A stretch of DNA of 64,000 bases from Escherichia coli (GTDB lineage: Bacteria > Pseudomonadota > Gammaproteobacteria > Enterobacterales > Enterobacteriaceae), in assembly GCF_017348835.2 (NCBI RefSeq), contig NZ_CP072315.1. One strand, 5' to 3'. This document shows positions 595 through 62,155 of this stretch, piece after piece; the stretch's first letter is position 1, and the number at the start of each line of letters is the position of its first letter. The position numbers were made by a program, and so were the translations under genes. A model generated the notes under the pieces. It had not been told where the DNA came from. It did not search any database and saw nothing but the letters and a program-made list of their open reading frames with translations.

Positions 595-607
595 AAAAGT
601 AACTTTT
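595..607. promoter_or_regulatory. palindrome site AAAAGTAACTTTT (member of dispersed AAAGTNACTTT family)
   Basis: Exact 13-bp palindrome read directly, about 170 bp upstream of the ORF starting at 425; function inferred only from over-representation. Confidence 0.4.
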
Positions 608-832
608 GTGCAGCTCATAAATTTTATTTATTAGTTACGTTCCTTTGTCTTGTGGTCGAAGTTCATCAGGCGAGGCCTAAGAAGAATATGTGTGGTTTCA
701 GCCAATGCGGTGATCGGGCATTATAATTTGGTCGGGCTATTATACGTGGGTAAAGGTAGTGGTAGGGAGAGGATCAGGTTAAATTGCATTTTCCCGGTTG
801 CCTTCCCTGGCCTACCGGTTTCAGGTCAGACG

Positions 833-2014
833 CTAAGACCAGCGGTAATACTTAAAGTAGTCCTCATTTACAGCCAAAAACTCCCTTAAACCGTTCATTA
901 ATCCCTTTTCAAACGCTGTAACGATAAACCGGTATCCGTCCAGTGTTTCAATGTAGTAGATCCCGCCCGGTGTTATTCCAACATGCAACACCTCGGCTGT
1001 CATCATAAACTGGCCTTCCGGAAAATCATGCGACAGGTATATAAAACCCGTCGTGGCCGGTGCGGGTGTGGCATTCACTAAGACACCGTTAAACTGCTGC
1101 CCGTGCCTCGCCGGTACAAGCTCACTTCCCCTGGTTGACTTATCGAGCAGCCCCTTAACATCTTTTTGCTCTTTAGATGAGGTATAGCCCCGCACATCAC
1201 TCCCATCACCTGGGCGAGAGCCGGTGCCGACATGTGCAAGACGACGGTAAGCGCTGCGCATATTGATGTGGCAGGATGCCCCGGCTCTACCCTGAAGCCT
1301 TACGCCAAAATCTTCGCAAAGTAATAAAATCTGACGTAGCTGGTGTTCATACACGGACGCAGAAAGTGAAAGGTTGAAACTGGAAAAGGTCAGTTCTAAA
1401 ACCTTTTCCCGTTTGTCATTGAAATGTGCTTCCAGCCTGATGATTGGCTTTTCCGACATTGCAAAAGCTTTGTCCGTTGCTCTGTACCGGCATTCATCTC
1501 CGAAACATTCTTCAACAACGCTGGCTATAACCGTGTCGTGATCGCCATCTTCCGGAGCTGGCACAAAGATTTCAAATTGTGCCGGTGTCTCCGGCTCCAG
1601 CAGAACGGGATATAAACGCGGAGAATTAAGCAATGCGCATTCAGAATTAATGAGCTTAACCCAGGCGCTTTTGTCGTCCGGATCCTTAAGCTGCTGTCCA
1701 AGGTTATCGCAAAAGTCTACTATCTGACGGGTATGCTCATCCGTGACTGCACAGATCAGGTTAAGACCATGCGTGGCCATACTCAATTCCCGGGTTCGGG
1801 ACTGGGAATTGATCGACCAGGGGTTAAGTGAAAGCGAAATAGGGCTTATGGAAGGGACGACCGTCTCATTCTGCAAATCTGTAAGCTGGCAGTTCGCAGT
1901 AGGCTTCGGGGAAAGGGTACTAAATATGTAACTTGCCTGTTGTTTAGTACTGGCCTGGATATAAAACATCGCGTCCATGCTTGTATCCCGGGATGAAATT
2001 GAAAATAGCTTCAT
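833..2014 (-). CDS. hypothetical protein (393 aa), immediately downstream of higB-like gene
   Basis: ORF starts 9 nt after the higB-like stop with an AAGG RBS; no HTH or other motif recognised. Confidence 0.5.
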   Translation of the reverse strand: MKLFSISSRDTSMDAMFYIQASTKQQASYIFSTLSPKPTANCQLTDLQNETVVPSISPISLSLNPWSINSQSRTRELSMATHGLNLICAVTDEHTRQIVDFCDNLGQQLKDPDDKSAWVKLINSECALLNSPRLYPVLLEPETPAQFEIFVPAPEDGDHDTVIASVVEECFGDECRYRATDKAFAMSEKPIIRLEAHFNDKREKVLELTFSSFNLSLSASVYEHQLRQILLLCEDFGVRLQGRAGASCHINMRSAYRRLAHVGTGSRPGDGSDVRGYTSSKEQKDVKGLLDKSTRGSELVPARHGQQFNGVLVNATPAPATTGFIYLSHDFPEGQFMMTAEVLHVGITPGGIYYIETLDGYRFIVTAFEKGLMNGLREFLAVNEDYFKYYRWS

Positions 2015-2022
2015 TTTTAACC

Positions 2023-2319
2023 TTAATGGATGAGCGATTTATAGTCATGTGCTGACAAATGGACATTATGTGCGCCATCATTCCATTCAAAGAATAATCG
2101 ATACTTAGAGTTTACTCGAATGGAGGAATAACGGTTTGACGTCATTCTTAAGCGTTCATAACGCAAGCTGTTGGATAATAACTCCCGCTCACTCTGGACA
2201 TTATCCAGCGTTTCGAGTCGACACAGAATCGCGTTAATAATTTCAGAAGGAATACCTGCCGTTGTTTTTCCATTACGGAAGAACTTTTCAAGCCGTCTGT
2301 CTTTAAATGAATGGATCAT
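2023..2319 (-). CDS. higB: HigB-like type II toxin (RelE/ParE superfamily, plasmid killer family)
   Basis: N-terminal MIHSFKDRRLEKFF and C-terminal YRLFFEWNDGAHNVHL..HDY resemble HigB family signatures; GGAGG RBS upstream. Confidence 0.6.
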   Translation of the reverse strand: MIHSFKDRRLEKFFRNGKTTAGIPSEIINAILCRLETLDNVQSERELLSNSLRYERLRMTSNRYSSIRVNSKYRLFFEWNDGAHNVHLSAHDYKSLIH

Positions 2320-3273: not shown

Positions 3274-5664
3274 TTATGTTTGAGGGAATTCTATAGCAAA
3301 TGTGGCCGTGCCAGATTGACCACTTACAGCGGGAGTAACGGGATACGTGCGCTCTTCACCATTACCAAGATCCAGTGACAGCGATTTAGTTTCACCAGGC
3401 TGGACCGTAACTCCGGCAACCGTAACGCCGAACTGGGCATTTTTCTGAACAGTCAGGGTTCCGTTTAACTGTCCGGTAATGATAGAACCGTCCTGACGCC
3501 GCAACACACTGGTTCGGATGATGGCCAGCGGCGTGTTGTCCGTTGCTTTCAGTGCTACGGCTGTGGCCAGCGTCTTGAGATTATCCAGCATAATCAGATT
3601 CGCAGGCTGGTAGGTAAAATTAAGCGTTTTAGTGGTCCGGTTACCTGATTCGTCAATAGCCAGTGCCTCCAGATGATACATCTGTCCCGATTCGTCAGTG
3701 TTGGGGAAGATTCTGGGGTATTCCGGAATAAAGACATCCTTGGATAACGGCGTGAATGCCAGGGTGACCTTTTCAGAGTTAGGTCCACCAGCGAGCTGAA
3801 GCGATGTCAGGGAAGCATCCCCAGAGGCATCAGTAACGCTTATGCGAAGGTTCTCAAGCCCTTTAACCAGTTTTCCTTCTGCGTCTGCGCCATTAAAACT
3901 GAACGCGATAACCGGAAGCGTTGAGTCAATTTTCAGCGGTGCATTAAGCGTTTTGGTTCCGGTGTTTCCAACAAGATCCGTGGCAGAGACGCTAACCACC
4001 GTATAATCCCCGTCCGGTAGACCAGCGTATGAGAAGGTGGCGTTTTTGGTTTTATAATCGCTTTCACTGACGGTCACAGGCTTCAGCGTGAAAGGTTCCC
4101 CCCGGGCATTTTTAAGGGTGGCTTCGAAAACTTTGGTATCCCAGTAGCTGATGTTCCAGGCGTTGACGCGATCATTATCGGTGGCCGTCATAGTGATTGT
4201 CTTGGAGGCCTTGTTTACCTGAGCGACATTAACCACCGGTGGGTTGTTATCCCAGATAACCGTAAAATTACCAGCAAGCGCATCGAATATGCTGTCACCA
4301 TCTTTTCCCGAGTAAAGGTGCAGATACTCAAATCCTTTGTCACTGGTGTAGTTGAAGTTAACCGTCATCTCGCATGAACTTTGTCCGATAGGTATAGTGC
4401 AGAACCAGGCTGCATTTTTTACCGTTCTGAACTTTTGCACGTATGGTCGGGGTTCAGCGGTTACCTTTATGCGGCTAATGGTGGCGGTTTTAACGCTGAT
4501 TGAGGCCTGAGTTAACCACTCACTGGTATCACTCCGGTACATCTCTTTAGCCACTATCTTCGGGGCTATTTCCATCGCCGGGGCTGGAGTGAAGTTGAGG
4601 GAGTTATGATGAATTCGTCTTACTCCTCCTGCCAGAGTCTGGAATTCATGATAAGTATCCCCCACATTGGGATATATGTATTTGAAAGTATAAATATTAT
4701 AAGTGCTATCGGACGTCTGGAAATTCGAGTCCGCCCAGCCATATTTGGAACCGTTAACAGCAGTAAAGTCACTTTTTTTCCTTAATACCCGTACGGAAAT
4801 AGGGTTCTGGAAGACGGTCATGCCAGACTGATAAGTGACCCATGATCCGGTAGTGGCGTCCTGCACCTGGATGATATCGTCAGGCTTAACCCGATCAATT
4901 ACGCTTCGGCGGCTTAGTTCGATCCTGTTTCCCGCTTTGTCATAAAGGTAGATCCCCACTTTATATTCAGAGCGGTTTTCCGGTGCCAGGGCATTGCTGC
5001 TTGCGTCGGCGACTTGAACGGTTACGCTACCTTCCACTGTATTAATTTCCGCTGGCTTTTTACGCTCCACTCCAGCGGCATCGGTTATGAAATATTCAGC
5101 ATTAGCAAGCCCGGAACCTTTATCACTCAGTCCATTAAAGACCAGTGCCTGGACGCTGGCGTACTGCATACCGGCTGGTACTGAAGTGAAGATCGCTTCG
5201 CTGCCAAAGTTCCACCCGTTTCTCGTATAACTTATGGTACCCGTTGCCGGAGGCGTTCGGTCAATTGCAAGCGGGTAATCCTGCCGGGAGACCTCCTTCC
5301 CTTGCAAGTCGGTAATCACCTCTCTGAGGGTGAAGCTATCTTCTCCCATCGCTGGTACGGTCAGAGTCTTGCCGTAATAATCAAAGCCTGTCGAAGATGT
5401 GGTACGGTCATCTACGGTAACCAGGCTGCTTTTCGTGCTCCAGATGAGGCTCCCGTCACTTTTCAGCAGACTGAGCGTAATATAACGGTCCAGACCGGAA
5501 ATAACGGCAACGTCAAAGCTCGTTACCGGATTAATCCATACGGATGCAGGCGATACGGTCTTTTTAACGTTCAGGGTATCTTTAAAGCTGAATTCTGCGA
5601 TTTCAGCGGAAGCTCCTGCGCTGAAACCTGCAAATGCAATAAGCAGGGCTAGTTTGATTTTCAT
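3274..5664 (-). CDS. large secreted Ig-like/adhesin-like protein, ~800-aa paralog 1
   Basis: Start moved to the Met preceded by AGGAGA RBS (track start 5691); signal peptide MKIKLALLIAFAGFSAGASA; shares CxIPxGxxSC motif and C-terminal GLENLRI..LAGGP..NFTYQPANL module with ORFs at 9285 and 17587. Confidence 0.7.
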   Translation of the reverse strand: MKIKLALLIAFAGFSAGASAEIAEFSFKDTLNVKKTVSPASVWINPVTSFDVAVISGLDRYITLSLLKSDGSLIWSTKSSLVTVDDRTTSSTGFDYYGKTLTVPAMGEDSFTLREVITDLQGKEVSRQDYPLAIDRTPPATGTISYTRNGWNFGSEAIFTSVPAGMQYASVQALVFNGLSDKGSGLANAEYFITDAAGVERKKPAEINTVEGSVTVQVADASSNALAPENRSEYKVGIYLYDKAGNRIELSRRSVIDRVKPDDIIQVQDATTGSWVTYQSGMTVFQNPISVRVLRKKSDFTAVNGSKYGWADSNFQTSDSTYNIYTFKYIYPNVGDTYHEFQTLAGGVRRIHHNSLNFTPAPAMEIAPKIVAKEMYRSDTSEWLTQASISVKTATISRIKVTAEPRPYVQKFRTVKNAAWFCTIPIGQSSCEMTVNFNYTSDKGFEYLHLYSGKDGDSIFDALAGNFTVIWDNNPPVVNVAQVNKASKTITMTATDNDRVNAWNISYWDTKVFEATLKNARGEPFTLKPVTVSESDYKTKNATFSYAGLPDGDYTVVSVSATDLVGNTGTKTLNAPLKIDSTLPVIAFSFNGADAEGKLVKGLENLRISVTDASGDASLTSLQLAGGPNSEKVTLAFTPLSKDVFIPEYPRIFPNTDESGQMYHLEALAIDESGNRTTKTLNFTYQPANLIMLDNLKTLATAVALKATDNTPLAIIRTSVLRRQDGSIITGQLNGTLTVQKNAQFGVTVAGVTVQPGETKSLSLDLGNGEERTYPVTPAVSGQSGTATFAIEFPQT
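4765..4775. promoter_or_regulatory. palindrome site AAAGTCACTTT (dispersed family)
   Basis: 11-bp core palindrome read directly, inside Ig-like gene 1. Confidence 0.3.
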
Positions 5665-9284: not shown

Positions 9285-11705
9285 ATGAAACATCTCGCTT
9301 TTATTACTGCTGTAGCCGGACTCGGTATGTCTGTTCAGGCCCCAGCTCAGATATATGAATCGGCCTTTAAGGACACGAACGGTATTGAGATCCACGCCCC
9401 GTCTTCTCGTCTTATGCTTAATCCGGCATCACCGGTAACTTTGACACTTATTTCAGGTCTTGATCGTTTCGTTAATGTCAAAGTCACGAAAGACACTGGA
9501 ACTGTCATTCTTAATACTACGACTACACGGACGGGTGTATCAGACCGACTAACAGCTGCTGACGGTAGTGAGTTCTACGGCAAAAAAGTAACTTTGCCTG
9601 CTTTGGGTGAAGGCAAATTTGTCGTTCAGATAAACGTGTTAGATCTCAATCAGAAGCCTGTAGCGACCTATAACTATAACTGGCTAATTGATGTCACCCC
9701 TCCAGCGGCAAATGCTCTTACCGCTAATACTGGTTCTGGCTCTACCGCTGGTGACGTGTGGAAGCTTGGATTAGAGGCAACGGGGCAGTATGACTTCACC
9801 TCTTCGGGCGTAAGTGATGCAAATGGTATTGATAAGGGCCTAATATATATTTACAGGCAGGACGGTAGCCTCTACAGCACTACACAGATGCAGTATGACG
9901 TATCCGGCCAAAAGATGTACCACACTTACTCTAAGAATTCAGTTAAGGGAACCGGAATACCAGACAGCAACCTGGATGAAGACTTTACTGCAAAAGTTGT
10001 TATCTTCGATAACGCAGGTAATAGCCGAACGCTGCCAACTCAAAAATTTCGCTACGACAACACGCTGGGTGAGATGACACTGTGGGCCGTTCATGATCCA
10101 AATACGTCTTCCAGCGTCGTACCCGGGGTTTCTAATTATCCGGCTTACAAAGCCGGTATGGTCGTTAACGAAAACCCTATTCGATTAGTCTACCGGATCC
10201 CAAAATCTAACTACCGTGCTTATTCAGAAGGTGGGCTTCAGTTCATCAATCAATATTCCGCCCCCAAAGAGATAGCTGTAGACAGCACTTATGCTTATGT
10301 TGAAATGACTCTTCCCTATGGCTCAATTAATGGGGATATGGCTCGTATGGCGAACTTTGGCCAGTGGGGAGGGTATTATCCGTCATACAGCCTCGTTCTA
10401 AACCCATCTGCAAACCAAACGCCTGCATTTGCGGGTACCTGGGTAGATTTCCTCGATGATAAGGGGAACTGGGTTAAGTGGAAGGATTTTGAGAGTGTGG
10501 CTTCATCACGACTGCCAATTAAAATTTCCCGACTTCGTTTTAACGTTGAAGCCCGGCCCTTTGCACAGGAGATCGGCGGTAAGGCGACCTGCACCATTCC
10601 GGCAGGAAAAACCTCGTGTGAAGCGCCTGAGACGTTTGATATGGCCTTGGGTACCCAGGGCTACAATAGAATCCTTTACTTCGTTCGCAGCATCAGCAAT
10701 CCCATTTTGCGGTCTGAGCAATGGATTATGACACGCTGGAACAATAAACAACTGCCGGTAATAAACTCGATATCATATGACGAGACTAACAAGCAGCTGG
10801 ATGTACTGGCGTCACTTGAAGGCGATGGTAACTGGTTCGACTCGGTCTCATTGAGGGAATTTTATCTTTCCGATAAGAACACCGGTACCCGGATGTCACC
10901 AACAGGCGTAATCAAATCTCGTATCTCAGGTAACTACACGATTGCTTATGATTTATCCCGTCAGTCTGAAGGAAAATACAACGTTGAGGTCAACATCAGG
11001 GACTTCTTCCAGAACCAGACCAATAAAACTTTCGGAGAAATTGCTCTGGATAACACTCCTCCGACAGTGGCCATAACATTCGACGGAAAGCCGGTAAAAG
11101 ACGATACGGTAGTGTACGGCCTGGAGAACCTCAGGATCGCTCTGGCAGATAATCTGACAACCCCGAGGATAACCCGTCTTCAGCTCGTAGGTGGCCCCAC
11201 AGCTGATAACGTTGAGCTTACGTGGTCACCGGCAGGCAAAGATACATACATGCCTGAGTATCCGAGGCTGTTCCCAAATTTCGAACCATCTGAAAATTAT
11301 TCAATTAGCGTAACAGTTGCCGATAGTCAGTCGAATACCAAAACCTATACTCAGAAGTTCAGTTATCTACCGAATAACCTTGTGCAGTTACATAATCTAC
11401 GCACATTGTCGGTCAGTTCACCTCTCAAAACGACAGATGGCGTACCACTTGCGTACCTGTCCACTAACGTTCTGCGTAAGACAAATGGAGAAATTGCTAA
11501 AGGGGTCCAGAACGCAACGCTGACTGTGCGGAAGGATGCAGCCTTCGGTATTAAATTTAATGGGGCACAGGCGGCTCCAGGCGAGTCAGTTGAGGTGCAA
11601 ATAGATATGGGCCAGGGGGATAATCTTCTGTTACCCGTTTATCCTTCCGAAAATGGGAAAGTTGGCACCTCAGAATTCATGATTCAGATCGACGAGTTGA
11701 AGTAA
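9285..11705 (+). CDS. large secreted Ig-like/adhesin-like protein, ~800-aa paralog 2
   Basis: AGGGGAA RBS; signal peptide MKHLAFITAVAGLGMSVQA; conserved ISGLDRF, ATCTIPAGKTSC and C-terminal GLENLRI..LVGGP..FSYLPNNLVQL module shared with paralogs. Confidence 0.75.
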   Translation: MKHLAFITAVAGLGMSVQAPAQIYESAFKDTNGIEIHAPSSRLMLNPASPVTLTLISGLDRFVNVKVTKDTGTVILNTTTTRTGVSDRLTAADGSEFYGKKVTLPALGEGKFVVQINVLDLNQKPVATYNYNWLIDVTPPAANALTANTGSGSTAGDVWKLGLEATGQYDFTSSGVSDANGIDKGLIYIYRQDGSLYSTTQMQYDVSGQKMYHTYSKNSVKGTGIPDSNLDEDFTAKVVIFDNAGNSRTLPTQKFRYDNTLGEMTLWAVHDPNTSSSVVPGVSNYPAYKAGMVVNENPIRLVYRIPKSNYRAYSEGGLQFINQYSAPKEIAVDSTYAYVEMTLPYGSINGDMARMANFGQWGGYYPSYSLVLNPSANQTPAFAGTWVDFLDDKGNWVKWKDFESVASSRLPIKISRLRFNVEARPFAQEIGGKATCTIPAGKTSCEAPETFDMALGTQGYNRILYFVRSISNPILRSEQWIMTRWNNKQLPVINSISYDETNKQLDVLASLEGDGNWFDSVSLREFYLSDKNTGTRMSPTGVIKSRISGNYTIAYDLSRQSEGKYNVEVNIRDFFQNQTNKTFGEIALDNTPPTVAITFDGKPVKDDTVVYGLENLRIALADNLTTPRITRLQLVGGPTADNVELTWSPAGKDTYMPEYPRLFPNFEPSENYSISVTVADSQSNTKTYTQKFSYLPNNLVQLHNLRTLSVSSPLKTTDGVPLAYLSTNVLRKTNGEIAKGVQNATLTVRKDAAFGIKFNGAQAAPGESVEVQIDMGQGDNLLLPVYPSENGKVGTSEFMIQIDELK
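9584..9595. promoter_or_regulatory. palindrome site AAAAGTAACTTT (dispersed family)
   Basis: Read directly; the same site plus flank (AAAAGTWACTTTGCCTGCT) recurs at 34713. Confidence 0.3.
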
Positions 11706-11807: not shown

Positions 11808-11819
11808 AAAAGTTACTTT
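11808..11819. promoter_or_regulatory. palindrome site AAAAGTTACTTT (dispersed family)
   Basis: Read directly, about 100 bp downstream of Ig-like gene 2. Confidence 0.3.
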
Positions 11820-20198: not shown

Positions 20199-20211
20199 AA
20201 AAGTAACTTTT
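20199..20211. promoter_or_regulatory. palindrome site AAAAGTAACTTTT (dispersed family)
   Basis: Exact 13-bp palindrome in the divergent promoter region between 20043 and 20416. Confidence 0.4.
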
Positions 20212-20262: not shown

Positions 20263-20275
20263 TAAAAGTAACTTT
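20263..20275. promoter_or_regulatory. palindrome site AAAAGTAACTTTT (dispersed family)
   Basis: Second exact copy 64 bp from the previous one in the same intergenic region. Confidence 0.4.
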
Positions 20276-25147: not shown

Positions 25148-25516
25148 AGGGGCTCCGTTACATTTTTCTGCTTACTTTCTGCGTAGCGGGGATACTACCG
25201 AAAAAAAAATTCATAATTTTTCGCAAAAAAGGTACTTTTTGAGCCTATTCTGATTTTTTACAAAAAAAGGTGGCTCCCCATTACTTGTGATGGCATAAAA
25301 ATCGCTTCATAAACAAATACATAAATCCAAAACATAAAGTTCAGGTATAAGTGAGGAAAAATCTTATAAATCCGAAATGCTGAAAGTCAAAACTGTGCGT
25401 CTTAAACAACTTTTTTTTGCTCCCTAAGTTATTAGTTAAAGCCCGTGGTTAGGTACGATACCAGCACCTAAATTTCTCTCTCAGGTATAGACACTTTGAC
25501 TCGACATCTCAGACAC

Positions 25517-26337: not shown

Positions 26338-27195
26338 CTAATCAACTAGGCTAATCCATTCCTCAAAAGTTAATACCTCAGGGTAAGTTCGTTGAACATA
26401 AGGTATAAACTGAAGCTCTTCTATTCTCCGGTCGCCCCTCTTTCCTTCGCAAATAAATGAAATGAGTCCTTGCTGAGAAAGGCCAGTAAGGACGCTCATA
26501 AGTCTTATATTTAGACTTTTAAGCTGTAAGTCGTTATTAATGTCCTCCACTTTATGAGAGCTCTGGCCTGAACGTTTAAGATACTCGTAAACCATGAAAT
26601 TCGAATTTCGTCGTTTTAACAATTTTTCGGTTATGCATTCCTGAATGAAGTCGCCAAGAGCATCTAAAAGCGGACTGAGAACTACCGGGAAAGTTAATGT
26701 GTAACTTTGAGAAGTTTTAGACAAAGTGAATGAGTTTAGAAAGCTAAAGTTTAGTCTCTTTTTTGAATATGGAACATAAGCGACAAGAGTAGTCGACATA
26801 ACAGTAAGTAAAGCTTCAAGATGGTTCACTGTTATTAAAGTGGTTTTATCTGTATTTCTAAGATTATGGAAATCAATAAACGCTACTCTTGAACGGCTAA
26901 GCCAATCTTGTACTTTAATGTCGATAGAAAATTGCGAGATATGATTTGAACATTCATTTTGGGTGATAGGGCATGCAGACGAAAGATGGTTATGGATTAT
27001 CATGCATAGCACAAAAAAAGGAAAACGGCAGGCTGTGGGGCATTGAAAACCGGTTAAAGAAAGCTTAGACGTTTCATATGCGCTTACCGGAAAAGTAACT
27101 TTTCTTAACGTTGGCTTTGACGATGTTCTTGCATTTTTACAAATGAAACCGAGACCCAGATCATTGTGCATTTTAAAGTCCATCTCCATCATCAC
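26338..27195 (-). CDS. hypothetical protein (285 aa)
   Basis: Complete ORF convergent with dam; no motif recognised. Confidence 0.45.
   Translation of the reverse strand: MMMEMDFKMHNDLGLGFICKNARTSSKPTLRKVTFPVSAYETSKLSLTGFQCPTACRFPFFVLCMIIHNHLSSACPITQNECSNHISQFSIDIKVQDWLSRSRVAFIDFHNLRNTDKTTLITVNHLEALLTVMSTTLVAYVPYSKKRLNFSFLNSFTLSKTSQSYTLTFPVVLSPLLDALGDFIQECITEKLLKRRNSNFMVYEYLKRSGQSSHKVEDINNDLQLKSLNIRLMSVLTGLSQQGLISFICEGKRGDRRIEELQFIPYVQRTYPEVLTFEEWISLVD
27091..27103. promoter_or_regulatory. palindrome site AAAAGTAACTTTT (dispersed family)
   Basis: Exact 13-bp palindrome with GG/C flanks, near the 5' end of the gene at 26338-27195. Confidence 0.35.
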
Positions 27196-30874: not shown

Positions 30875-30887
30875 AAAAGTAACTTTT
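30875..30887. promoter_or_regulatory. palindrome site AAAAGTAACTTTT (dispersed family)
   Basis: Exact 13-bp palindrome about 110 bp downstream of rep. Confidence 0.35.
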
Positions 30888-31659: not shown

Positions 31660-31672
31660 AAAAGTGACTTTT
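31660..31672. promoter_or_regulatory. palindrome site AAAAGTGACTTTT (dispersed family, central G)
   Basis: About 240 bp upstream of the pilin gene start. Confidence 0.4.
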
Positions 31673-37017: not shown

Positions 37018-37875
37018 GTGAAAAAGTTACTTTTCCCTTTAATGGCGGCTTTCGCCATTATGGCGAATACGGTCACTTATGCTTCAGAGCAGGTCCTAAC
37101 TAATAGTGATGCTGCTGCGTTAATGGCAAAGGCAAAGGAAGGCGGCGTTTCACCCAGTCAGATCTCGGGTGCGTTATCAAAAATGAAAGGATATAAACCT
37201 AAGGATGCCATATACATTCCTTCTGGTGGGCTATACCTCTTTCAGGACGAGCGTTCGCAGCTAATGGCAGTAACGACCGATGGCCGATACTCCCTTACTG
37301 GGGGAAGCCTTGTTGATGTAATTAAACGTAAACCTGTTCTGACTGTAGAAGAAATCAGAAATTCCTATTTTATTAGTCTTGATGAGGCCCCCTTCCCTCT
37401 GGAAACTGTAGCGTCCATTCATCTGGGAAATTCAAAGCTTAAGAGACAAGCAGCCATTTTCTTAACACTTGATTGTGACGGTTGCATGGAACTTGTTAAG
37501 AAATTTTATGCAGATCGGGACAAGTATCGGATAGATATTGTTTTAGTTCCCTCACCCGGTGAGCCAAAAGAAGAGCTTAGAAGGCTCTGGTGTAGTAAAG
37601 AAAAAGGAAAAATAAACAACCTCGATATTCTTCGTTGGCTAATGGGAAGCAAATCCGACATTGAAAAAAGATTGCTCTCTCAAAAAGAAGCAGAAGAATG
37701 TCCGGCGGAACCTTTGGTAGCGTCATTGATGCTCGCAGGAATTTATAAATTGCAGGGTGTACCTTCAGTTGTCAGACAGGATGGTTTGGCTGGTAATGGC
37801 ATTCCAAAAGATTTCGACTACTGGTTGAACCAAAGCGTTGAACCTCTCTTAAAAAATCCATTTGAGACAAATTAA
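37018..37875 (+). CDS. periplasmic thioredoxin-fold thiol:disulfide interchange protein (DsbC/TrbB-like)
   Basis: GTG start with signal peptide VKKLLFPLMAAFAIMANTVTYA; CDGC active-site-like motif; the track start at 36892 would overlap the upstream gene by more than 100 nt. Confidence 0.55.
   Translation: MKKLLFPLMAAFAIMANTVTYASEQVLTNSDAAALMAKAKEGGVSPSQISGALSKMKGYKPKDAIYIPSGGLYLFQDERSQLMAVTTDGRYSLTGGSLVDVIKRKPVLTVEEIRNSYFISLDEAPFPLETVASIHLGNSKLKRQAAIFLTLDCDGCMELVKKFYADRDKYRIDIVLVPSPGEPKEELRRLWCSKEKGKINNLDILRWLMGSKSDIEKRLLSQKEAEECPAEPLVASLMLAGIYKLQGVPSVVRQDGLAGNGIPKDFDYWLNQSVEPLLKNPFETN
37022..37034. promoter_or_regulatory. palindrome site AAAAGTTACTTTT (dispersed family)
   Basis: Read directly at the start of the DsbC-like gene. 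Confidence 0.35.
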
Positions 37876-48067: not shown

Positions 48068-48585
48068 AGATTATCCTCATTCAAAAATAAAAGATATAAC
48101 TCTTGAAAATCGTGGTTATTAATTAGGTCCGCTTTTCCGGGAAAATCGTAACTAACAGAAAATAAAAGAGAAAGAGAATCTTTTCCTTTTGCTTTGGGAG
48201 AGATTCTGCTAAAAGCACGGTTAATAAACATAAGTTGATCTTCATTGTTGAAGCAAAGTCCAAGCATTCCAACCGTAGGAACTACGAATGTGCTTACGCT
48301 GCCTGGGGGCAAAAGTTGCTTACTACGGGCATTGTAAGCACAACGACTACCACCTAGCGTTAGGCCTGAAAGCTCAATAAAACTTCTGGTTCCATTCTTG
48401 GCGACAAGCCAAACATCAGTTCCTGAACTTTCGACACGTAAAGTAACTTTTCCGTCAGTAAAGGCCTCACTTTTATTGTATAGAATAGGGTCAAAACCAA
48501 CTGTCGGGAGTTCTTCGATTTTACTTTCTACTGACTGACAACCAGTCAGTAATGCAAACAATAAAAGTGTGATAACTTTAATCAT
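48064..48585 (-). CDS. lipoprotein (173 aa)
   Basis: Lipobox LLTGC; start/stop overlaps with neighbours. Confidence 0.55.
   Translation of the reverse strand: MIKVITLLLFALLTGCQSVESKIEELPTVGFDPILYNKSEAFTDGKVTLRVESSGTDVWLVAKNGTRSFIELSGLTLGGSRCAYNARSKQLLPPGSVSTFVVPTVGMLGLCFNNEDQLMFINRAFSRISPKAKGKDSLSLLFSVSYDFPGKADLINNHDFQELYLLFLNEDNL
48440..48451. promoter_or_regulatory. palindrome site AAAGTAACTTTT (dispersed family)
   Basis: Read directly, inside the lipoprotein gene. Confidence 0.3.
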
Positions 48586-50513: not shown

Positions 50514-50524
50514 AAAGTAACTTT
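50514..50524. promoter_or_regulatory. palindrome site AAAGTAACTTT (dispersed family)
   Basis: About 200 bp upstream of parM in the divergent promoter region. Confidence 0.4.
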
Positions 50525-53265: not shown

Positions 53266-53680
53266 GATTAGATATGTTTTATCTGGTTTTGTTGTGATAT
53301 GTGCATTTGCTGGAGTTTATAAAATCCTAAACAATGTTCCGGTTAAACCTGACCTTTTGGACTTCACTGGAAACACATTTAAAAAGACATCACTCTTCCT
53401 GCCATGTGATAAAAGCTCGCCTTCTTTAAACATTAAAATTGCTGATAACGAGAAAATCGTGATCAACGGCATCGCTTCAAAAGTAACTTTTGTTGAAAAG
53501 GCTGACCCCGTCAAAAGCCCTGGTTTTTGTGATGATCTTGATCTAAACAATTCTCGCCTTGTACATACGGCATCTTACAGCATGGTGATTTCTGAAACCA
53601 AAACAGGATATACACTCTCAAATTTCAAGCATCTTGCCGATGATGAATCATTAGGTGGTATGTGGTTTTATCAAAAGTGA
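53255..53680 (+). CDS. membrane-anchored or secreted protein (141 aa)
   Basis: GGAG RBS; N-terminal hydrophobic segment. Confidence 0.5.
   Translation: MKSKIRYVLSGFVVICAFAGVYKILNNVPVKPDLLDFTGNTFKKTSLFLPCDKSSPSLNIKIADNEKIVINGIASKVTFVEKADPVKSPGFCDDLDLNNSRLVHTASYSMVISETKTGYTLSNFKHLADDESLGGMWFYQK
53479..53491. promoter_or_regulatory. palindrome site AAAAGTAACTTTT (dispersed family)
   Basis: Exact 13-bp palindrome inside the ORF at 53255-53680. Confidence 0.3.
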
Positions 53681-54243
53681 CTTTTTATATGGCAACTTCA
53701 GACTTCTCTCTTAAAAACCATAATGTAAAAGCTTTTGGTCAGGATGCAGCACTTGTCATTGAGATGAACAATGAAGATGTTAGCTCATCAAAACCTTCAC
53801 CTTTTTCAAATGAGATTGATAATTATTATCTTACATTGCACGTCGCTCCGAGGAACGCCAAAAAAGATTATGACTGGGGCTCAAACCGTTCTGTACTTCT
53901 AAAATTGTCGACGAATGAAGTTATGCAGATGGCATCTGTATTTCTTAGAATCATGCATACTTTAAAAATTGATAAGAGGAAAACCTCACATCATGGCCAC
54001 GTCGTATACAAAAATATAAGCGTTACCCCAAACGAGAGGGGCGGTTTGTTGTTATCAGCAGGGATAGTTCCAGTCGATAAAGACGGCTTAAAACCCTTCA
54101 TGCACATGGTCCCCGTCTCACAAATGGACTGCGTTAAAATTGGCCTCTACATACTTGGATATCTTGCTCAAAAAACGCCTTGGGTAAGCTCCGAGTCTAT
54201 AATTACCGCGCTTCGCTTATCTGAAGCCAAGAATTCAAAATAG
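53662..54243 (+). CDS. hypothetical protein (193 aa)
   Basis: GTG start with AGGTGG RBS; alternative ATG at 53689. Confidence 0.45.
   Translation: MVLSKVTFYMATSDFSLKNHNVKAFGQDAALVIEMNNEDVSSSKPSPFSNEIDNYYLTLHVAPRNAKKDYDWGSNRSVLLKLSTNEVMQMASVFLRIMHTLKIDKRKTSHHGHVVYKNISVTPNERGGLLLSAGIVPVDKDGLKPFMHMVPVSQMDCVKIGLYILGYLAQKTPWVSSESIITALRLSEAKNSK
53673..53685. promoter_or_regulatory. palindrome site AAAAGTGACTTTT (dispersed family, central G)
   Basis: Read directly at the start of the ORF at 53662. Confidence 0.35.
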
Positions 54244-54362: not shown

Positions 54363-57300
54363 ATGAGAAAATCAGGTTTAGGTTTAGCCCTGTTGTTTTC
54401 TTTAATTGCTCCGATTAAAGCGGTCTATGCCGAAGCGATTATGATTTCAGGAAAGCTACAGGCTGATTTGCCAGCCGTATCCTTTGACCCGGGGCCGGGC
54501 GACTTTGTTGCATACGTTAATTCTAACACTATCACTGCCTCAGGTGCAGGCACAGCCTGTAATGTAACGGTTGATGATCGAGCGACTTCCTCTGTTGATA
54601 ACCTCGTTTGTTTTTTTGAGTGGTTACCCAATACCTTGGGATTTACTTCTAACGGTTTCACTCTTTCAGGCGTTCCCAACACCACCGGTGATTTAAAACT
54701 ACCTTACAAGATTTCTTACTTCTCTGGTTCTGAACGGAAAAAAGTTGAAATAGTAAAAGGTGAATATTCAATCAAAAGTGTGGCACCGGTAAAACCTACT
54801 ATCACCGGTCTTAAATCATCCCTGAACGGATTAGTCTATGACGGCTTTTCTTTCAAATCGTATTTAAAGGATGAAGCGATCAAAGATATCGCTGTTTCTG
54901 TTGAGCCCCGCAATTATATTCAATACATCTCAATAGGTTCAGGCTCCGCCTGTGAAGTTCCTATTGGCGGAACTTCCTGTACCATTGAAGTTGGAAGCAT
55001 TAAGGCCAGTGATACAGATGAACTTTTGGGTTCACGTGATATCACAATTACAGCAAACTCTAAGAATAATTATTTCGCACCTCCTGAATCCAAAAAGCTT
55101 GTTGTTAACTGGGATTATCGGCCTCCTGTAGTAGACCATACACTTTGGAATTTTACCGATGAGGCTAAAACAATCAAAGTAGGTGGCCAGGACATCTATA
55201 CCGGAGCCAAAACCGTTGCTGTGGCCGTTAAGGTACCCCAGCAAGAAACAGAAGGTGAATGGTGGCTCCCAACAGCTATGTCGCTCACTATGACTCCGGA
55301 TGGCGTGTTTAAACCGACGACTAAAGTGACTTTAGATGATGGCACTGAGATTGATTTCAAACAGTCCTGGGCAACCCCTTTACGTAGAACTTTACAGCCG
55401 GTAAGTGGACCTCAAAAAGTCGGTGATGAGTACCTCTATATCTTCGACTTAACGGATCTTATAAACGGGTCCTACGCAGCGACTTTTACAGTAGAAAATA
55501 CGAGCAAAAACTCTTCTACGTACACTGAGCCTGAAAGCAAACTGATGCTGTCTGATAACCCAACGCTTATGGTTCTCAAAGATGGGCAGGTATTAACTAA
55601 ACGAGCACCCGTATACTTCCTGAACGAGATTATCGTTGCAGCTTTCCAGGGGCAGGCTGGGGTTGCTGACATAAAATCAGTAACAATAGACAACAAAGTA
55701 GTTTCGTTAACACCTACAAATTATAGAGGTATTTACTACCTGCCGGTTGGAGACGATTTAGCAGTTAATTCGGATCACGAGATTACTGTGGTGGCTGAAA
55801 ACCTTTATGGAAAAAACGTTAATTTCAGTACCGTTTTCACTTATCAACCTACTGGATTCACTCTCAAGAATCTGGAAAAAAACGTAACTCTTTACTCGCG
55901 TGTACGTCAGTATACGGACCTGCTTAGTCAAACAGCTGGTGATAAATGCACTCTGTTTACCACAGAGGAAAATGCGAATGCTTACCTCGCCTGGTATGGG
56001 GAAAAATCAGATGTTACAGCATGCTACCCTCAGTGGAACAATGTCCCTGATGGGTTGGAGTTCTATTTTAAAGGACGTACCCCGGGTCTAACTGGATTCT
56101 TTAATAAAACAGGTGAGAATCTGCTCGACTATCAAGTCTATATGATTAACGGGAAGGGCTCTAAAGCGGTATCCGCAAGGAATCGCCGTACTCTGACCAC
56201 ACAATTACCATACAACCCGATCATCTCTTACAAAAAGAATAAAGTCATAGCTGGCATCAATCCGAACACTGCTCTGGCTTATACGACCGGGGGGGAGGCC
56301 GCTCGAATATTAGCGAAGGTGGTACCAGCTGACGTTACGATGATCGTCTCTCAAAACGGCTCTGAGGCTGTCAAAACGTCATTTAAAAATCGTTCCTCAA
56401 ACAACGATGCAACGACCTTTGTACAAAGGGTTAAGGTTGCTGCTGCACCATTGTGGACAAAGAACGTCTTTGACATAGCTGTAGAATACTCAAAGGATCC
56501 AGAATTAAGAACTACAGACACACTCAACGTATATACGGTGCCTGATTTCAATATTCGAGCATCGATGGAAGTGGATGACAGAAAAACAGCCACATCTCTT
56601 GAAGTGCCCTTAAAGGTAACAGTGGGGCGTTATAACAACTCCACACGTAAAAGTGCATTTGACCGTAAAACAATGGGAGAATGGGACGTCACGATATACT
56701 CGCAAAAAAGTGTATACGGCAAAGATCCAGAAACAGGCCGTTATAAAACTACATACGAAAGAACTGCGCTGACTGAAGCATTGCCGGTCAATGATGCGGG
56801 CATTGTCGAAACCAAGATTAAAATTGAAAATATGGATCTGGGTAATATGCGTCTGGTTGGTGTGGCTAAGGTCAGATCGCCATTCTCTGATTTTGAAATG
56901 AAACGTGAGACCAGTGCTGTAGGCATTCGAATCTATAAAGGTGAGGAACTGGAGGGTAACCTGTCGAAAAGCCTTATTATCGGAAGGATCCCACTTAGTA
57001 CTCTGGTAAGCTTCAAATCTGCCAGTACTGCTAACTCTGACGCACTTGCCCCCACCGAATGGCAGCAGTCCTCTGATAATGGTCAAACCTGGAATATGCT
57101 TTCCGACATGACCGGAAAGAGAAGTGTAAGTATCAAAAAGACAGAAGTAGGAAAGTGGCTTTATAGGGCAAAAATGACCAATAAATTCACATCTAAGGTT
57201 TCCTACACAGATGCCTTAACGGTAGTTACCTACAAGCAGCCTAAGCTCAGTATAGATGTGACAGACATTCTTCAGGGCTCAGATGTACCTGTAACCCTGC

Positions 57301-58667
57301 TTGATAACGATGAGCCTATACCAGCAGGCACCGCTGAGGTTCTCTGGTCAGAGGATAAAGTCAACTGGGTGCAGGGAGATACAACTTACACTGTGGCTTC
57401 AGCTGATACCCTACCGTCTACGATTTATGCCCGGATGCGTTACCTTGATTCCGATGAACTGGCAGAGGAGTCTTCATGGAAGGAAACGTCTGCTCGGTTG
57501 GCAGCCGCAAAACCCAAGCGCCTTTCTGTCTCGGTAACGGGGGTTTCTAAGGTAGAGGTTGGTCAAAAAGTTACTTTGGAAGGTAAGTTCACGAACCCTA
57601 ACAGTAAGTACCAGAATGGTAATAACGTAGTTGAAGAATGGAAAACACCGGATGGCCAGACATTTAAAGGCTCTACACTGTCTGTTACCCTTACTGAGCA
57701 AATGTTGGATAAACAGGGATATGCTGCTTTTGAATACAGTGCATGGTTAGCGGACAATAAGGAGAATACGGTTTCTACCCGTAGAGTTTCTGTCAAATCG
57801 TGGGTTTATAAATTCCCCGAAATGAAAATAAGCTCCAAACTTAAATACGACATGGCACCGACCACCCTACGCGTTGCGTTGAGCGGTATTAAGGATGGAG
57901 ACTATCCTGGTGTTACTTATTCCCGAGAATGGATTTACGACAAAGAGAATCTGGTAATCACTAAAGATGAAGGTGACACCAAAGAATTTACAATTGAAAA
58001 TCCTGGCAAATATACATTGATGGTTGTTTTCAAAGATAACCGCAACAATGAACAGCGTATCGAAAATACCTTTGTTGTCGATGAACAAACGCCAATGAAC
58101 GTTGAGATGACACCCAAGTTCTCTAACAAATATATGAGAGCTCCACTCGATGTAACCTTAAGGTCAAACATCAAGCTATCTCATTCGGCGGACTCGATAG
58201 ATACGGTCACATACAAGGTGAACGGTGAGGTAATACCCAGCGGCAAAAATTATTGGGCTCAACTGATTTCGGGTTTAAAAGAAAAGAAATACGAGATCAC
58301 AATTGATGTTGTTAGTAAACTTGGACAGAGAGGTTCAGCATCTGTTGAGTTTGATGTCGTTAAAAACGCAGTGCCTAATTGTACATTGAGCTACACGGAA
58401 ACCAACCTAAGCTGGAGCTTTACCAATAAATGTGATGATACTGATGGAAAAATGGTTAGATATGAATGGTTCATCAACGGCGAATTAAGGAACGTTTTCG
58501 GTAGTACGGCTACACTTTCTAAAAACCTTAACCGTGGTAAGCAGGACATAAAAGTAATTGCTTATGATGATAGTGGAGACTTTGCAACGCAGCACGTGAC
58601 AGTTTTCGGACCGGCTGAAGAGGCAAGTAAGTCTGAAAACACTGTATCAATACCAAGCAGTGAGTAA
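54363..58667 (+). CDS. very large secreted Ig-like/adhesin-like protein (1434 aa)
   Basis: Signal peptide MRKSGLGLALLFSLIAPIKAVYA; Thr/Ser/Val/Asn-rich repeated modules; shares the CxxPxGGTSC motif with the three ~800-aa paralogs; strong terminator downstream. Confidence 0.75.
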   Translation: MRKSGLGLALLFSLIAPIKAVYAEAIMISGKLQADLPAVSFDPGPGDFVAYVNSNTITASGAGTACNVTVDDRATSSVDNLVCFFEWLPNTLGFTSNGFTLSGVPNTTGDLKLPYKISYFSGSERKKVEIVKGEYSIKSVAPVKPTITGLKSSLNGLVYDGFSFKSYLKDEAIKDIAVSVEPRNYIQYISIGSGSACEVPIGGTSCTIEVGSIKASDTDELLGSRDITITANSKNNYFAPPESKKLVVNWDYRPPVVDHTLWNFTDEAKTIKVGGQDIYTGAKTVAVAVKVPQQETEGEWWLPTAMSLTMTPDGVFKPTTKVTLDDGTEIDFKQSWATPLRRTLQPVSGPQKVGDEYLYIFDLTDLINGSYAATFTVENTSKNSSTYTEPESKLMLSDNPTLMVLKDGQVLTKRAPVYFLNEIIVAAFQGQAGVADIKSVTIDNKVVSLTPTNYRGIYYLPVGDDLAVNSDHEITVVAENLYGKNVNFSTVFTYQPTGFTLKNLEKNVTLYSRVRQYTDLLSQTAGDKCTLFTTEENANAYLAWYGEKSDVTACYPQWNNVPDGLEFYFKGRTPGLTGFFNKTGENLLDYQVYMINGKGSKAVSARNRRTLTTQLPYNPIISYKKNKVIAGINPNTALAYTTGGEAARILAKVVPADVTMIVSQNGSEAVKTSFKNRSSNNDATTFVQRVKVAAAPLWTKNVFDIAVEYSKDPELRTTDTLNVYTVPDFNIRASMEVDDRKTATSLEVPLKVTVGRYNNSTRKSAFDRKTMGEWDVTIYSQKSVYGKDPETGRYKTTYERTALTEALPVNDAGIVETKIKIENMDLGNMRLVGVAKVRSPFSDFEMKRETSAVGIRIYKGEELEGNLSKSLIIGRIPLSTLVSFKSASTANSDALAPTEWQQSSDNGQTWNMLSDMTGKRSVSIKKTEVGKWLYRAKMTNKFTSKVSYTDALTVVTYKQPKLSIDVTDILQGSDVPVTLLDNDEPIPAGTAEVLWSEDKVNWVQGDTTYTVASADTLPSTIYARMRYLDSDELAEESSWKETSARLAAAKPKRLSVSVTGVSKVEVGQKVTLEGKFTNPNSKYQNGNNVVEEWKTPDGQTFKGSTLSVTLTEQMLDKQGYAAFEYSAWLADNKENTVSTRRVSVKSWVYKFPEMKISSKLKYDMAPTTLRVALSGIKDGDYPGVTYSREWIYDKENLVITKDEGDTKEFTIENPGKYTLMVVFKDNRNNEQRIENTFVVDEQTPMNVEMTPKFSNKYMRAPLDVTLRSNIKLSHSADSIDTVTYKVNGEVIPSGKNYWAQLISGLKEKKYEITIDVVSKLGQRGSASVEFDVVKNAVPNCTLSYTETNLSWSFTNKCDDTDGKMVRYEWFINGELRNVFGSTATLSKNLNRGKQDIKVIAYDDSGDFATQHVTVFGPAEEASKSENTVSIPSSE
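55323..55333. promoter_or_regulatory. palindrome site AAAGTGACTTT (dispersed family)
   Basis: Read directly, inside the 1434-aa gene. Confidence 0.25.
57566..57577. promoter_or_regulatory. palindrome site AAAAGTTACTTT (dispersed family)
   Basis: Read directly, inside the 1434-aa gene. Confidence 0.25.
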
Positions 58668-58749: not shown

Positions 58750-58760
58750 AAAGTAACTTT
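58750..58760. promoter_or_regulatory. palindrome site AAAGTAACTTT (dispersed family)
   Basis: About 190 bp upstream of the peptidase gene. Confidence 0.4.
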
Positions 58761-60955: not shown

Positions 60956-60956
60956 T

Positions 60957-61091
60957 ATGAAACTCGGATTTATTATAGGCGCTCTCTTTGCAACATGGCT
61001 GACGCTAAATTATCCGGACCAGATGAGAAGTTATTTTACCAAAGCCGTCGACTATATCGAAAGTGTTGCAACATTTATTACATCCAAGTGA
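60957..61091 (+). CDS. small hydrophobic protein (44 aa), not in ORF track
   Basis: GAGGAAA RBS 8 nt upstream; reads MKLGFIIGALFATWLTLNYPDQMRSYFTKAVDYIESVATFITSK; fills the trhW-trhU gap. Confidence 0.3.
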   Translation: MKLGFIIGALFATWLTLNYPDQMRSYFTKAVDYIESVATFITSK

Positions 61092-61093
61092 GC

Positions 61094-62155
61094 ATGATGG
61101 TGAAAAAATTCAAAAAGTTACTTTTAGAGTTCATTGTAGCAGTTATGCTTTCGCTTTCTATACCTGGTATGGCTATGGCAGCAGATGCTGGAGTCCCTGG
61201 GGCTATGTGTCAGTCAGCTGGAGTGTGGCAGGGCTTGATTAAGAATATCTGTTGGAGCTGCATTTTTCCCATGAGGATAATGGGCATAGGGGCTGCTCCA
61301 GAAGGCGCTGCACCTTCACGTCCGGGTTGCTACTGCACAGATCAGAACGGCGTACCGGAAATAGGTTGGCAATTGAGCTTCTTTCAGCCGGTGAAGATTG
61401 TAGAAGTTGTAAAGAGCCCCTGGTGCAGCCCCTTTCTTGAAGGCACGATGCTTCAAAAATCGCAGTTTGATATTGGTAAAAGCAACACTAATCAGCCAAT
61501 GACAGCAACTGAAGCCGGATTTTACGATGTTCATCTTTGGGAGTTCCCAATCATGACAATGCTCAAATTACTGATTATTGGCGAGTGCACTGCTGAACCC
61601 TATATAGATGCCAGCCTGACCTATATAAGCGAAGTGGACCCTATGTGGGAAAGTGATCTGCTTACACTCGTCCTGAATCCCGAGGCAGTAGTTTTTGCAA
61701 ACCCAATTGCCTCAATGGTGTGCGCTGCTGACTGTGTAGCAGTAACAGCAGGAAAGGATAATCTCGCTGCATACTTTTGTGCCGGATGCGATGGCAACCT
61801 TTACCCATTAACCGGCCACATTTACGCAAATGATGACGCTGTAAGGACGAGTTCACTGATTACCCAGCGTCTTCTGACAAAACTACATCGCCAAGGCATG
61901 CTGATGCGAACGATGGGAGCAGACGCAATGTGTGAGAAAACGTGGGAATACTTTACACCACGTTCCCAGTATCGGCTTTCAATGCTTTTCCCTACTCCTG
62001 AGGCGAAGGGACCGGATTGCTGTCATCGTCTTGGTGATTCGGTACACGACTGGTCAACCCTTAAAGGTGGGCGCAAAAAAATAGGCAACGATAATTATGT
62101 CTATATGTTGTGGCGTTACAATGACTGTTGTGTTCGCTACGTTCCAGGCGTTTGA
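61094..62155 (+). CDS. trhU: TraU/TrhU-like pilus assembly protein (Cys-rich, secreted)
   Basis: Start at internal ATG (MMVKKFKK...) 2 nt after the small ORF stop; signal peptide; many conserved cysteines. Confidence 0.65.
   Translation: MMVKKFKKLLLEFIVAVMLSLSIPGMAMAADAGVPGAMCQSAGVWQGLIKNICWSCIFPMRIMGIGAAPEGAAPSRPGCYCTDQNGVPEIGWQLSFFQPVKIVEVVKSPWCSPFLEGTMLQKSQFDIGKSNTNQPMTATEAGFYDVHLWEFPIMTMLKLLIIGECTAEPYIDASLTYISEVDPMWESDLLTLVLNPEAVVFANPIASMVCAADCVAVTAGKDNLAAYFCAGCDGNLYPLTGHIYANDDAVRTSSLITQRLLTKLHRQGMLMRTMGADAMCEKTWEYFTPRSQYRLSMLFPTPEAKGPDCCHRLGDSVHDWSTLKGGRKKIGNDNYVYMLWRYNDCCVRYVPGV
61113..61125. promoter_or_regulatory. palindrome site AAAAGTTACTTTT (dispersed family)
   Basis: Exact 13-bp palindrome at the 5' end of trhU. 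Confidence 0.35.

Follow-up and report, generated by a model that had tools for sequence, protein, structure and literature searches.

A conserved 13-bp palindrome dispersed over IncHI plasmid backbones and its candidate ParB-like binding proteins

The DNA considered here (the window) is a stretch of 64,000 nucleotides from an Escherichia coli contig (NZ_CP072315.1, assembly GCF_017348835.2). It is the backbone of an IncHI2 (incompatibility group HI2) plasmid, and more than 1,000 PLSDB records match it at ≥99% identity. The window contains a RepB-family rep gene, transfer genes, the partition modules Par1 (ParA/ParB) and Par2 (ParM/ParR), the gene for the regulator HtdA, several genes for immunoglobulin-like (Ig-like) proteins, and genes for two orphan ParB-like proteins. 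Among all of these is dispersed a short palindrome with the core AAAGTNACTTT, which an earlier note on this DNA had described as a candidate operator or parS-like site family; this palindrome, and the proteins that may read it, are the subject of this report.

The palindrome in the 64-kb window

The core occurs 19 times in the window, with 0.14 copies expected from dinucleotide shuffles and at most one copy in any of 100 shuffles; the strong excess that the earlier note had estimated by hand (about 0.1 expected) is therefore borne out. All 19 cores that it listed are present, with coordinates correct to within one base (the offsets arise because the starts of 11-mers and 13-mers were mixed). 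Its count of eleven full 13-mers is one too high, that is, AAAAGTNACTTTT occurs ten times (0.01 expected), and the longer form GGAAAAGTAACTTTTCC that it ascribed to several copies occurs nowhere in the window, which contains only the one-sided extension GGAAAAGT, three times. The 19-mer that two copies were said to have in common (AAAAGTWACTTTGCCTGCT) is indeed present in both; one copy is in an Ig-like gene and one at the start of htdO, and it encodes K-V-T-L-P-A-L both times, so we regard it as a putative site embedded in similar peptide contexts. The sites and the other features discussed here are collected in Table 1.

The logo of the site is aAAAGT-W-ACTTTt; its information is limited to 13 positions; membership of the set is defined by the ten core bases. 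The centre base is A or T in 85% of the sites and the flank at −6/+6 is A or T in 66%; a weak preference for G/C is seen at ±7, and no conserved sequence was found beyond ±7. The half-sites occur only with a spacer of one base (0 occurrences with spacers of 0, 2, 3, 4 or 5). Single mismatches are poorly represented: the 15 half-site variants together are observed 26 times on the backbone with 13 expected, and AAAGC-N-ACTTT is the sole enriched class (10 observed, 1.1 expected). The element is, then, a palindrome in near-identical copies and of the length that characterizes ParB-family sites (about 13–16 bp). A hairpin or terminator was rejected, the A/T stem of 5–6 bp with a 1–3-nt loop being unstable; since such a stem with a one-base loop makes no useful hairpin, we infer that the palindrome acts as duplex DNA and is read by a protein with two-fold symmetry.

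Table 1. Palindrome sites of the window and related features (positions in the window unless another replicon is named)
Feature	Position	Context	Counterparts and remarks
Site	596..606 (13-mer 595-607)	intergenic, 171 nt upstream of 125-aa gene 48-425(-)	
Site	4765..4775	within Ig-like protein gene 3274-5664(-)	
Site	9585..9595	300 nt into Ig-like protein gene 9285-11705(+)	R27, exact at orthologous position
Site	11809..11819	intergenic, 104 nt downstream of Ig-like gene	
Site, pair member 1	20200..20210 (13-mer 20199-20211)	divergent region, Ig-like gene(-) / 208-aa gene(+)	
Site, pair member 2	20265..20275 (13-mer 20264-20276)	same divergent region, Ig-like gene(-) / 208-aa gene(+)	
Near-consensus site AAAAGGTACTTTT	25227..25239	80 nt upstream of P387 gene	candidate autoregulatory operator
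Site (13-mer)	27092..27102	90 nt inside annotated 5' end of 284-aa gene 26338-27192(-)	R27 orthologous site
Site (13-mer)	30876..30886	intergenic, 111 nt downstream of RepB-family rep gene	
Site (13-mer)	31661..31671	243 nt upstream of pilin-like first gene of AC transfer operon	
Site	34714..34724	6 nt into htdO	R27 counterpart is tolerated variant AAAAGTAGCTTTT
Site (13-mer)	37023..37033	90 nt upstream of htdT	R27 orthologous site
Site	48440..48450	within 173-aa gene of Z operon	R27 orthologous site
Site	50514..50524	divergent region, Z operon / parM	no R27 counterpart
Site (13-mer)	53480..53490	within htdF	R27 orthologous site
Site (13-mer)	53674..53684	htdF/htdK junction	
Site	55323..55333	within rsp	exact at orthologous position, R27 and pNDM-MAR
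Variant AAAGTGGCTTT	57152..57162	within rsp	only enriched single-mismatch class on backbone
Site	57567..57577	within rsp	exact at orthologous position, R27 and pNDM-MAR
Site	58750..58760	intergenic, 185 nt upstream of trhF	
Site (13-mer)	61114..61124	14 nt into trhU	R27 orthologous site
19-mer AAAAGTWACTTTGCCTGCT	9584-9602; 34713-34731	Ig-like gene; htdO start	
P394 gene	pAMSH1 47310-48494	among establishment-type genes; outside window	394 aa
P387 gene	23984..25147 (-)	orphan ParB-like, phrog_1033	387 aa; present in IncHI1, 2, 3
P351 gene	28358..29413 (-)	third orphan ParB-like paralogue, phrog_1033	
Classical parB	46612-47616	Par1	
249-bp tandem repeat array	42404-44982	ORF-free gap trhC-parA	10.5 copies, 71% matches
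htdA	52813-53265		
trhY	pAMSH1 30167-30679		
Repeat AAAGTGACCCT	pAMSH1 31830, 31874, 31900; R27 108436, 108478, 108504, 108566	oriT region, trhR-mobI	3-4 copies, both orientations
Palindromes AACAAC-N3-GTTGTT	pNDM-MAR 61.6 and 65.0-66.2 kb	beside parA/parB	8-12 copies, ~200-bp spacing
Sites off the backbone	pAMSH1 4523, 9989, 226930, 250983; pNDM-MAR 19161	all adjoin qnrB6 or qnrB1	ISCR1/qnrB module

Extent, conservation and placement over IncHI backbones

The related IncHI2 plasmid pAMSH1 (NZ_CP030940.1) was assembled whole (257 kb, of which 186 kb is backbone); its positions 84453–133062 correspond to positions 15391–64000 of the window. (Positions 1–15390 of the window are shifted by about 1.7 kb relative to pAMSH1; the two IncHI2 plasmids differ by an indel located upstream of repHI2.) pAMSH1 contains 52 sites, 48 in the backbone and four copies of a single site in a repeated ISCR1-qnrB6 module. 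Markov models of orders 1–5 trained on the backbone predict 0.4–1.4 sites where 48 are observed, so the feature belongs to the whole backbone and not to the window; the earlier note was right that a site family exists, but the family is far larger than the window shows, it spans the entire IncHI backbone, and the gene for the top candidate binder (P394, described below) lies outside the window. R27 (IncHI1) contains 46 sites and pNDM-MAR (IncHI3) contains 87; three further IncHI-like lineages (Yersinia, Leclercia and a third) have 5–7 sites per 21 kb, and their P394 homologues are merely 44–50% identical. In an unbiased scan for every palindrome with 5-mer halves and spacers of 0–4, this motif is far ahead of all others in each of the three plasmids.

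Outside these backbones the motif is nearly absent. No sites were found in 40 kb of an IncC plasmid or in the 100 kb of the E. coli K-12 chromosome that were sampled as the host control proposed in the earlier note; accessory islands and IncC DNA together (189 kb) contain one unique site, present in four copies that travel with the qnrB6 module, and the resistance islands of the IncHI plasmids examined contain no sites other than those linked to qnrB. A scan of a genome collection for paired sites returned mostly tandem coding repeats or chance matches in AT-rich genomes, and two IncHI2 plasmids only. As sampled, the sites are specific to IncHI.

The sites are conserved where the surrounding DNA is not. 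R27 and IncHI2 are 65–81% identical in nucleotide sequence near the sites, and the proteins of pNDM-MAR and IncHI2 are about 25–60% identical; yet 22 of the 23 IncHI2 sites whose centres align with R27 DNA recur there as exact sites at the orthologous base (the remaining one is the tolerated AAAGC variant), and all four that can be aligned to pNDM-MAR are likewise exact. By column, identity is 96–100% for the ten core bases, 74% for the centre and 66% for the flanks. The sites, including those within genes, are DNA elements under strong purifying selection. A repetitive extragenic palindrome, a miniature inverted-repeat transposable element or another mobile repeat was rejected: conservation ends at ±7, and the 22 sites are positionally orthologous.

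The invariance of the motif over very divergent backbones, with proteins that are only about 35% identical, is what a conserved host (Enterobacterales) protein might impose. We consider such a binder very improbable: the E. coli chromosome and the IncC plasmid, which has the same hosts, lack sites in the DNA scanned, and no E. coli regulator is known to have this consensus. Chromosomal parS is invariant although ParB proteins are only 30–40% identical, so an invariant motif needs no host factor.

With respect to genes, 99 of 181 sites (55%) are located outside open reading frames (ORFs) of at least 100 aa, where only about 23% of the DNA lies (a 2.4-fold enrichment); the 82 intragenic sites are split 42/18/22 among the three reading frames. 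Both figures indicate that it is the DNA on which selection acts. Among the 19 sites in the window, ten are intergenic, three are inside genes within 6–90 nt of the start, and six are deep in coding sequence. Read from the annotation, the members of a series of leftward small genes elsewhere on pAMSH1 (hok and those encoding a DUF957 protein, a PAPS (phosphoadenosine phosphosulfate)-reductase-like protein and DNA methyltransferases) each have a site 130–220 nt upstream, and three sites are flanked by convergent genes. The distance to −10/−35-like hexamers shows no preferred value, the AT content local to the sites is ordinary, and the spacing along the backbone is close to random (coefficient of variation 0.74–1.02), with no regular spacing.

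This placement also bears on readings in which the palindrome is no binding site but a by-product of coding repeats (K-V-T-L/F, as in Ig-like proteins), the remnant of a mobile repeat, or a methylation/restriction target. In favour of these, frame 0 (K-V-T-F/L) is the commonest among the intragenic sites, four Ig-like genes have sites, and the plasmid encodes several methyltransferases. We give these readings almost no weight, and a coding artefact in particular was rejected, because most sites are outside ORFs, all frames are used and no flanks are conserved; also, ten specified bases far exceed known Type II targets. Targets of restriction-modification systems are normally avoided, not enriched and conserved.

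ParB-like proteins and other candidate binders

The IncHI backbone encodes three paralogues of one PHROG family (P394, P387 and P351), all of which match phrog_1033 ('ParB-like'). Their profile matches ParB, Spo0J and Noc (E = 5e-12), and P394 matches HTH_ParB; a ParB-fold helix-turn-helix (HTH) protein is, then, encoded on the same replicon as the sites. KorB is not among the sequence-profile matches at E < 0.1. A ParA-binding motif is absent from all three paralogues, none is adjacent to a ParA, no membrane-targeting motif is seen in them, and no KorA-like partner was identified. The earlier note had placed three ParB-family proteins in the window, and all three are there: P387, P351 and the classical ParB of Par1.

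Three observations direct attention to P394. First, a site is located at −96, −100, −116, −104 or −97 relative to its start codon in five of six lineages, with 1–5 additional sites farther upstream; in the manner of KorB, a candidate operator occurs in the promoter of the putative regulator itself as well as at other backbone promoters, but neither orthology to KorB nor pairing with IncC (ParA) and KorA was found. Second, the recognition helix (S/T-E-Q-H-x-R-Q/K) is retained in 18 of 19 aligned P394-type sequences that are 42–66% identical overall; that of P387 varies. Third, in the AlphaFold 2 model of P394 a confidently predicted ParB N-terminal domain plus HTH is followed by a disordered linker and then a small C-terminal domain; the best structural matches of the model are ParB, KorB in the KorB–KorA–DNA complex (8qa9, TM-score 0.66) and Noc.

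The promoter of P387 has a near-consensus site with one mismatch in IncHI1 and IncHI2 alike (AAAGGTACTTT) and an exact one in IncHI3, which makes it a candidate autoregulatory operator. P351 is not a plausible binder, although the earlier note had counted it among the candidates: it has no orthologue in IncHI3, despite the 87 sites there, and its R27 counterpart, R0037, is barely expressed. From the association with promoter sites, the fold, the conservation of the recognition helix and the exclusion of alternatives, we rank P394 as the first candidate binder and P387 as the second; both may read the same sites. Distant homologues of the three proteins were sought in plasmids, viral contigs and a protein collection; none was found in the viral contigs.

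The backbone encodes many small conserved proteins, and about 90 ORFs are common to IncHI1, IncHI2 and IncHI3, many of them without annotation; one of these could encode a protein that reads the sites but is not recognised as DNA-binding. We think this rather unlikely, since no other candidate combines, as P394 does, membership of a family that reads palindromes (13–16 bp) with sites in the promoter of its own gene and with conservation of the recognition helix.

The earlier note had further suggested a parS-like role and had proposed the classical ParB and ParR as binders; these parts of its reading are not supported. Sites are not clustered beside either the Par1 or the Par2 operon. The 3.8-kb ORF-free gap upstream of parA, between trhC and parA, contains 0 sites and instead holds the 249-bp tandem repeat, which is probably the Par1 centromere or an incompatibility array. 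The classical ParB was therefore rejected: it has this array of its own beside parA, and parAB of IncHI3 has instead a different, clustered palindrome (AACAAC-N3-GTTGTT), a candidate IncHI3 Par1 centromere unlike the IncHI2 repeat array. ParR was rejected because there is only a single site upstream of parM and it is missing from R27.

The IncHI backbone is also governed by a known circuit. In R27, an htdA mutant derepresses 139 of 181 expressed genes, no cis-element has been described, and parA and parB are reported to be HtdA-independent (PMC7366339). The largest site-free gap in the R27 backbone (22122–32957) contains parA and parB; the motif covers the same part of the plasmid as the HtdA-TrhR/TrhY circuit, a correlation that is not proof of a link.

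The palindrome could be the target of this circuit directly, that is, the TrhR/TrhY box (or a site for HtdA). The circuit governs most R27 genes and its binding site is unpublished; trhR has a site 77 nt upstream, and the H/R divergent region has two; and TrhY is basic, with a C-terminal C-x2-C-x13-C-x2-C that resembles the zinc site of FlhC. We nevertheless judge this improbable. Not every TrhR/TrhY-activated promoter (F, H, AC and Z) has a site: the F-operon promoter, the strongest target, lacks a site at ≤2 mismatches in IncHI1, IncHI2 and IncHI3, and so does the R27 Z promoter. The geometry with respect to promoters is not fixed, and neither protein has a recognisable DNA-binding domain (Pfam finds nothing for either). 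A search for a 12-mer box shared by four TrhR/TrhY-dependent R27 promoters gave a best match no better than shuffled controls. HtdA was rejected as the binder on its fold and acidic charge: it has an isoelectric point of 4.5, and its model (mean confidence, pLDDT, 85) predicts a YbjN/type-III-secretion-chaperone fold (CesT, ExsC, SicP), which is a protein-binding fold. This chaperone-like fold agrees with the published action of HtdA against TrhR/TrhY at the protein level, and the model fits an anti-activator that would sequester a protein partner. TrhR and TrhY may be distant analogues of FlhDC, AcaCD or SetCD. The origin-of-transfer (oriT) region between trhR and mobI contains a separate repeat, AAAGTGACCCT, that has a half-site in common with the palindrome and might serve the relaxosome as an accessory site.

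Regulatory reading, known analogues and meaning

The explanation that we favour, with moderate confidence, is that the a-AAAGT-W-ACTTT-t palindromes are where a homodimeric protein of the ParB/KorB/Noc fold, encoded by the plasmid itself, binds with high affinity (or loads), and that this protein exerts KorB-like control over the backbone. The binder would most likely be P394; the highly expressed P387 would share the sites or be the alternative. The dimer would occupy the 46–87 near-identical sites, about one per 2–4 kb of backbone; from these it would influence nearby transcription units, over distances that vary, as well as its own promoter, and the outcome would be plasmid-wide control of backbone genes that leaves acquired resistance islands untouched. 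The 6+1+6 geometry, the near-identical copies and the placement both at and away from promoters make the system resemble KorB and its operators (OB) or Noc and its binding sites (NBS) and not a fixed-geometry activator or a centromere. In this respect the earlier note was borne out: dispersed, KorB-operator-like sites for a dimeric DNA-binding protein, with ParB-family proteins as the best candidates, are what the density and form of the sites suggest.

Several points weigh against this explanation, the identity of the binder and the effect of binding both being inferred. In pNDM-MAR the P394 recognition helix is SVTHVRK, that is, changed at two positions, and the motif is unchanged; the motif is in fact invariant wherever a full-length P394 is encoded, and no co-variation between protein and site is to be seen. 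By the expression data, P387 and not P394 would be the abundant protein: R0042, the R27 orthologue of P387, ranks among the most strongly expressed R27 genes (signal of 6132 units at 25 °C, rising to 20561 when htdA is mutated). The nucleotide pocket has a degenerate Box II, which reads G-H/A-C-R-x-R-A where GERRxRA is canonical; the arginine that corresponds to R80 of B. subtilis never varies, whereas other residues take the place of the glutamate and of the first arginine. This makes CTP-dependent sliding uncertain, and nucleotide specificity is not predictable from sequence (PMC12704722). The orphan ParB-like HerB (YfjB), from the leading region of F, binds the chromosome of the host, where it follows no motif, and leaves F unbound (PMC13370423); the plasmid that encodes a protein of this type is therefore not necessarily its target. 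A site is present at only about half of the transcription-unit starts in the window (our reading of the tables, not a computed value). Many sites are intragenic or between convergent genes, and simple promoter repression therefore cannot explain all of them.

A rival reading keeps the same ParB-like proteins as binders but gives them a main role other than repression: binding would serve in relief of H-NS/Hha silencing (as for VirB), in tethering or organising the plasmid (as for Noc), or in marking or compacting it for segregation or establishment. We regard this as a real but lesser possibility. The near-random spread of the sites over the whole backbone, the many sites in genes or between convergent genes and the variable distance to −10/−35 elements are all compatible with it; the fold matches Noc as well as KorB; and IncHI expression is H-NS/Hha-dependent and thermoregulated (PMC7366339). 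However, the enrichment outside ORFs and the many transcription units with an upstream site indicate a role in transcription, the paralogues lack membrane-targeting and ParA-binding motifs, and the AT content around the sites is ordinary.

Of the known systems, KorB of the IncP plasmid RK2, with its 12 copies of OB (TTTAGC-S-GCTAAA), is close in form: both are 13-bp 6+1+6 palindromes in near-identical copies a few kb apart, at promoters, far from promoters and in genes, and KorB, like P394, combines a ParB fold with a site in the promoter of its own gene. The IncHI sites are 4–7 times more numerous; the IncHI proteins, which are not orthologous to KorB, lack a ParA/IncC partner and have a degenerate Box II, and IncHI has separate ParAB and ParMR partition modules. 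Noc, an orphan ParB paralogue that arose by duplication, has about 70 dispersed palindromes on the Bacillus subtilis chromosome with one region site-free, as in IncHI, and Noc structures are among the top matches by sequence and fold; however, Noc controls cell division by means of a membrane-targeting helix, which is not evident in the IncHI proteins, and the IncHI sites are enriched in intergenic DNA. VirB of the Shigella virulence plasmid is, as proposed for the IncHI binder, a plasmid-borne ParB-family protein with no partition role that reads an inverted repeat (virS) and alters transcription on an H-NS-silenced, thermoregulated plasmid, but it has few sites, acts as an anti-silencer and is absent from the listed sequence and fold matches of the IncHI proteins.

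Canonical parS is, as proposed here for the IncHI palindrome, read by a ParB-fold HTH and invariant while the proteins diverge; in contrast, the IncHI sites are unclustered at parAB, the paralogues lack a ParA-binding motif, and Par1 has its own array. HerB resembles P394 as an orphan ParB-fold protein encoded among establishment genes, but it has 652 aa and two extra domains and binds 156 host chromosomal regions with no consensus and no enrichment on F (preprint; PMC13370423), whereas IncHI has a sharp motif on the plasmid itself.

Comparable repeats were seen in other DNA. The stretch of an IncC plasmid that was examined (NZ_CP022063.1) contains a dispersed, intergenic, parS-like 18-bp perfect palindrome, ACTTTCACATGTGAAAGT, at positions 2746, 3205, 8531 and 11879, and an orphan ParB-like gene at 18838–19776; dispersed ParB-type sites may be general in MOBH megaplasmids. 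Tolypothrix campylonemoides (JXCB02000056.1) has eight copies of ttttGAAAGTSACTTTCatttt within 14 kb, just upstream of ORFs and with no ParB-like gene detected nearby; these are an unrelated operator-like family with the same core. On chromosome 2 of Vibrio breoganii, an array of AAAGTKACTTTCTAAG (positions 1110–1160 of the stretch examined; one unit every 18–19 bp) directly follows a 339-aa ORF and looks iteron- or centromere-like.

A full-text search of the literature, to which older subscription papers on R27 and R478 did not belong, found no plasmid paper with the motif; no DNA target of the IncHI circuit was described in the papers that it covered, which did not include the subscription papers on TrhR/TrhY. 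The kind of system, that is, dispersed operators of a ParB-family global regulator, is known; this instance differs in that its proteins are not orthologous to KorB, its sites are several-fold more numerous, three paralogues take part and the plasmid family is a clinically dominant one. A more far-reaching version of the favoured explanation, which we offer only tentatively, is that P394 (perhaps helped by P387) loads at the 46–87 sites, spreads and switches nearly all backbone genes together, whether off or on; it would then be the missing DNA-level part of the HtdA-TrhR/TrhY circuit and a second, independently evolved and denser instance of KorB-like long-range control.

IncHI plasmids rank among the chief vehicles of multidrug resistance (including mcr-1, NDM-1 and CTX-M) in Salmonella, E. 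coli, Klebsiella and Enterobacter. Co-regulation is known for transfer and for the majority of the genes of these plasmids, and no cis-acting element has been described for it; an invariant 13-bp motif provides a direct experimental handle on this regulation, and three unstudied ParB-like genes gain a testable function. In any IncHI sequence the motif also separates the ancestral backbone from acquired islands. Together with the dispersed palindrome that IncC has of its own, these observations suggest that KorB/Noc-like use of the ParB fold on large plasmids is perhaps more widespread.

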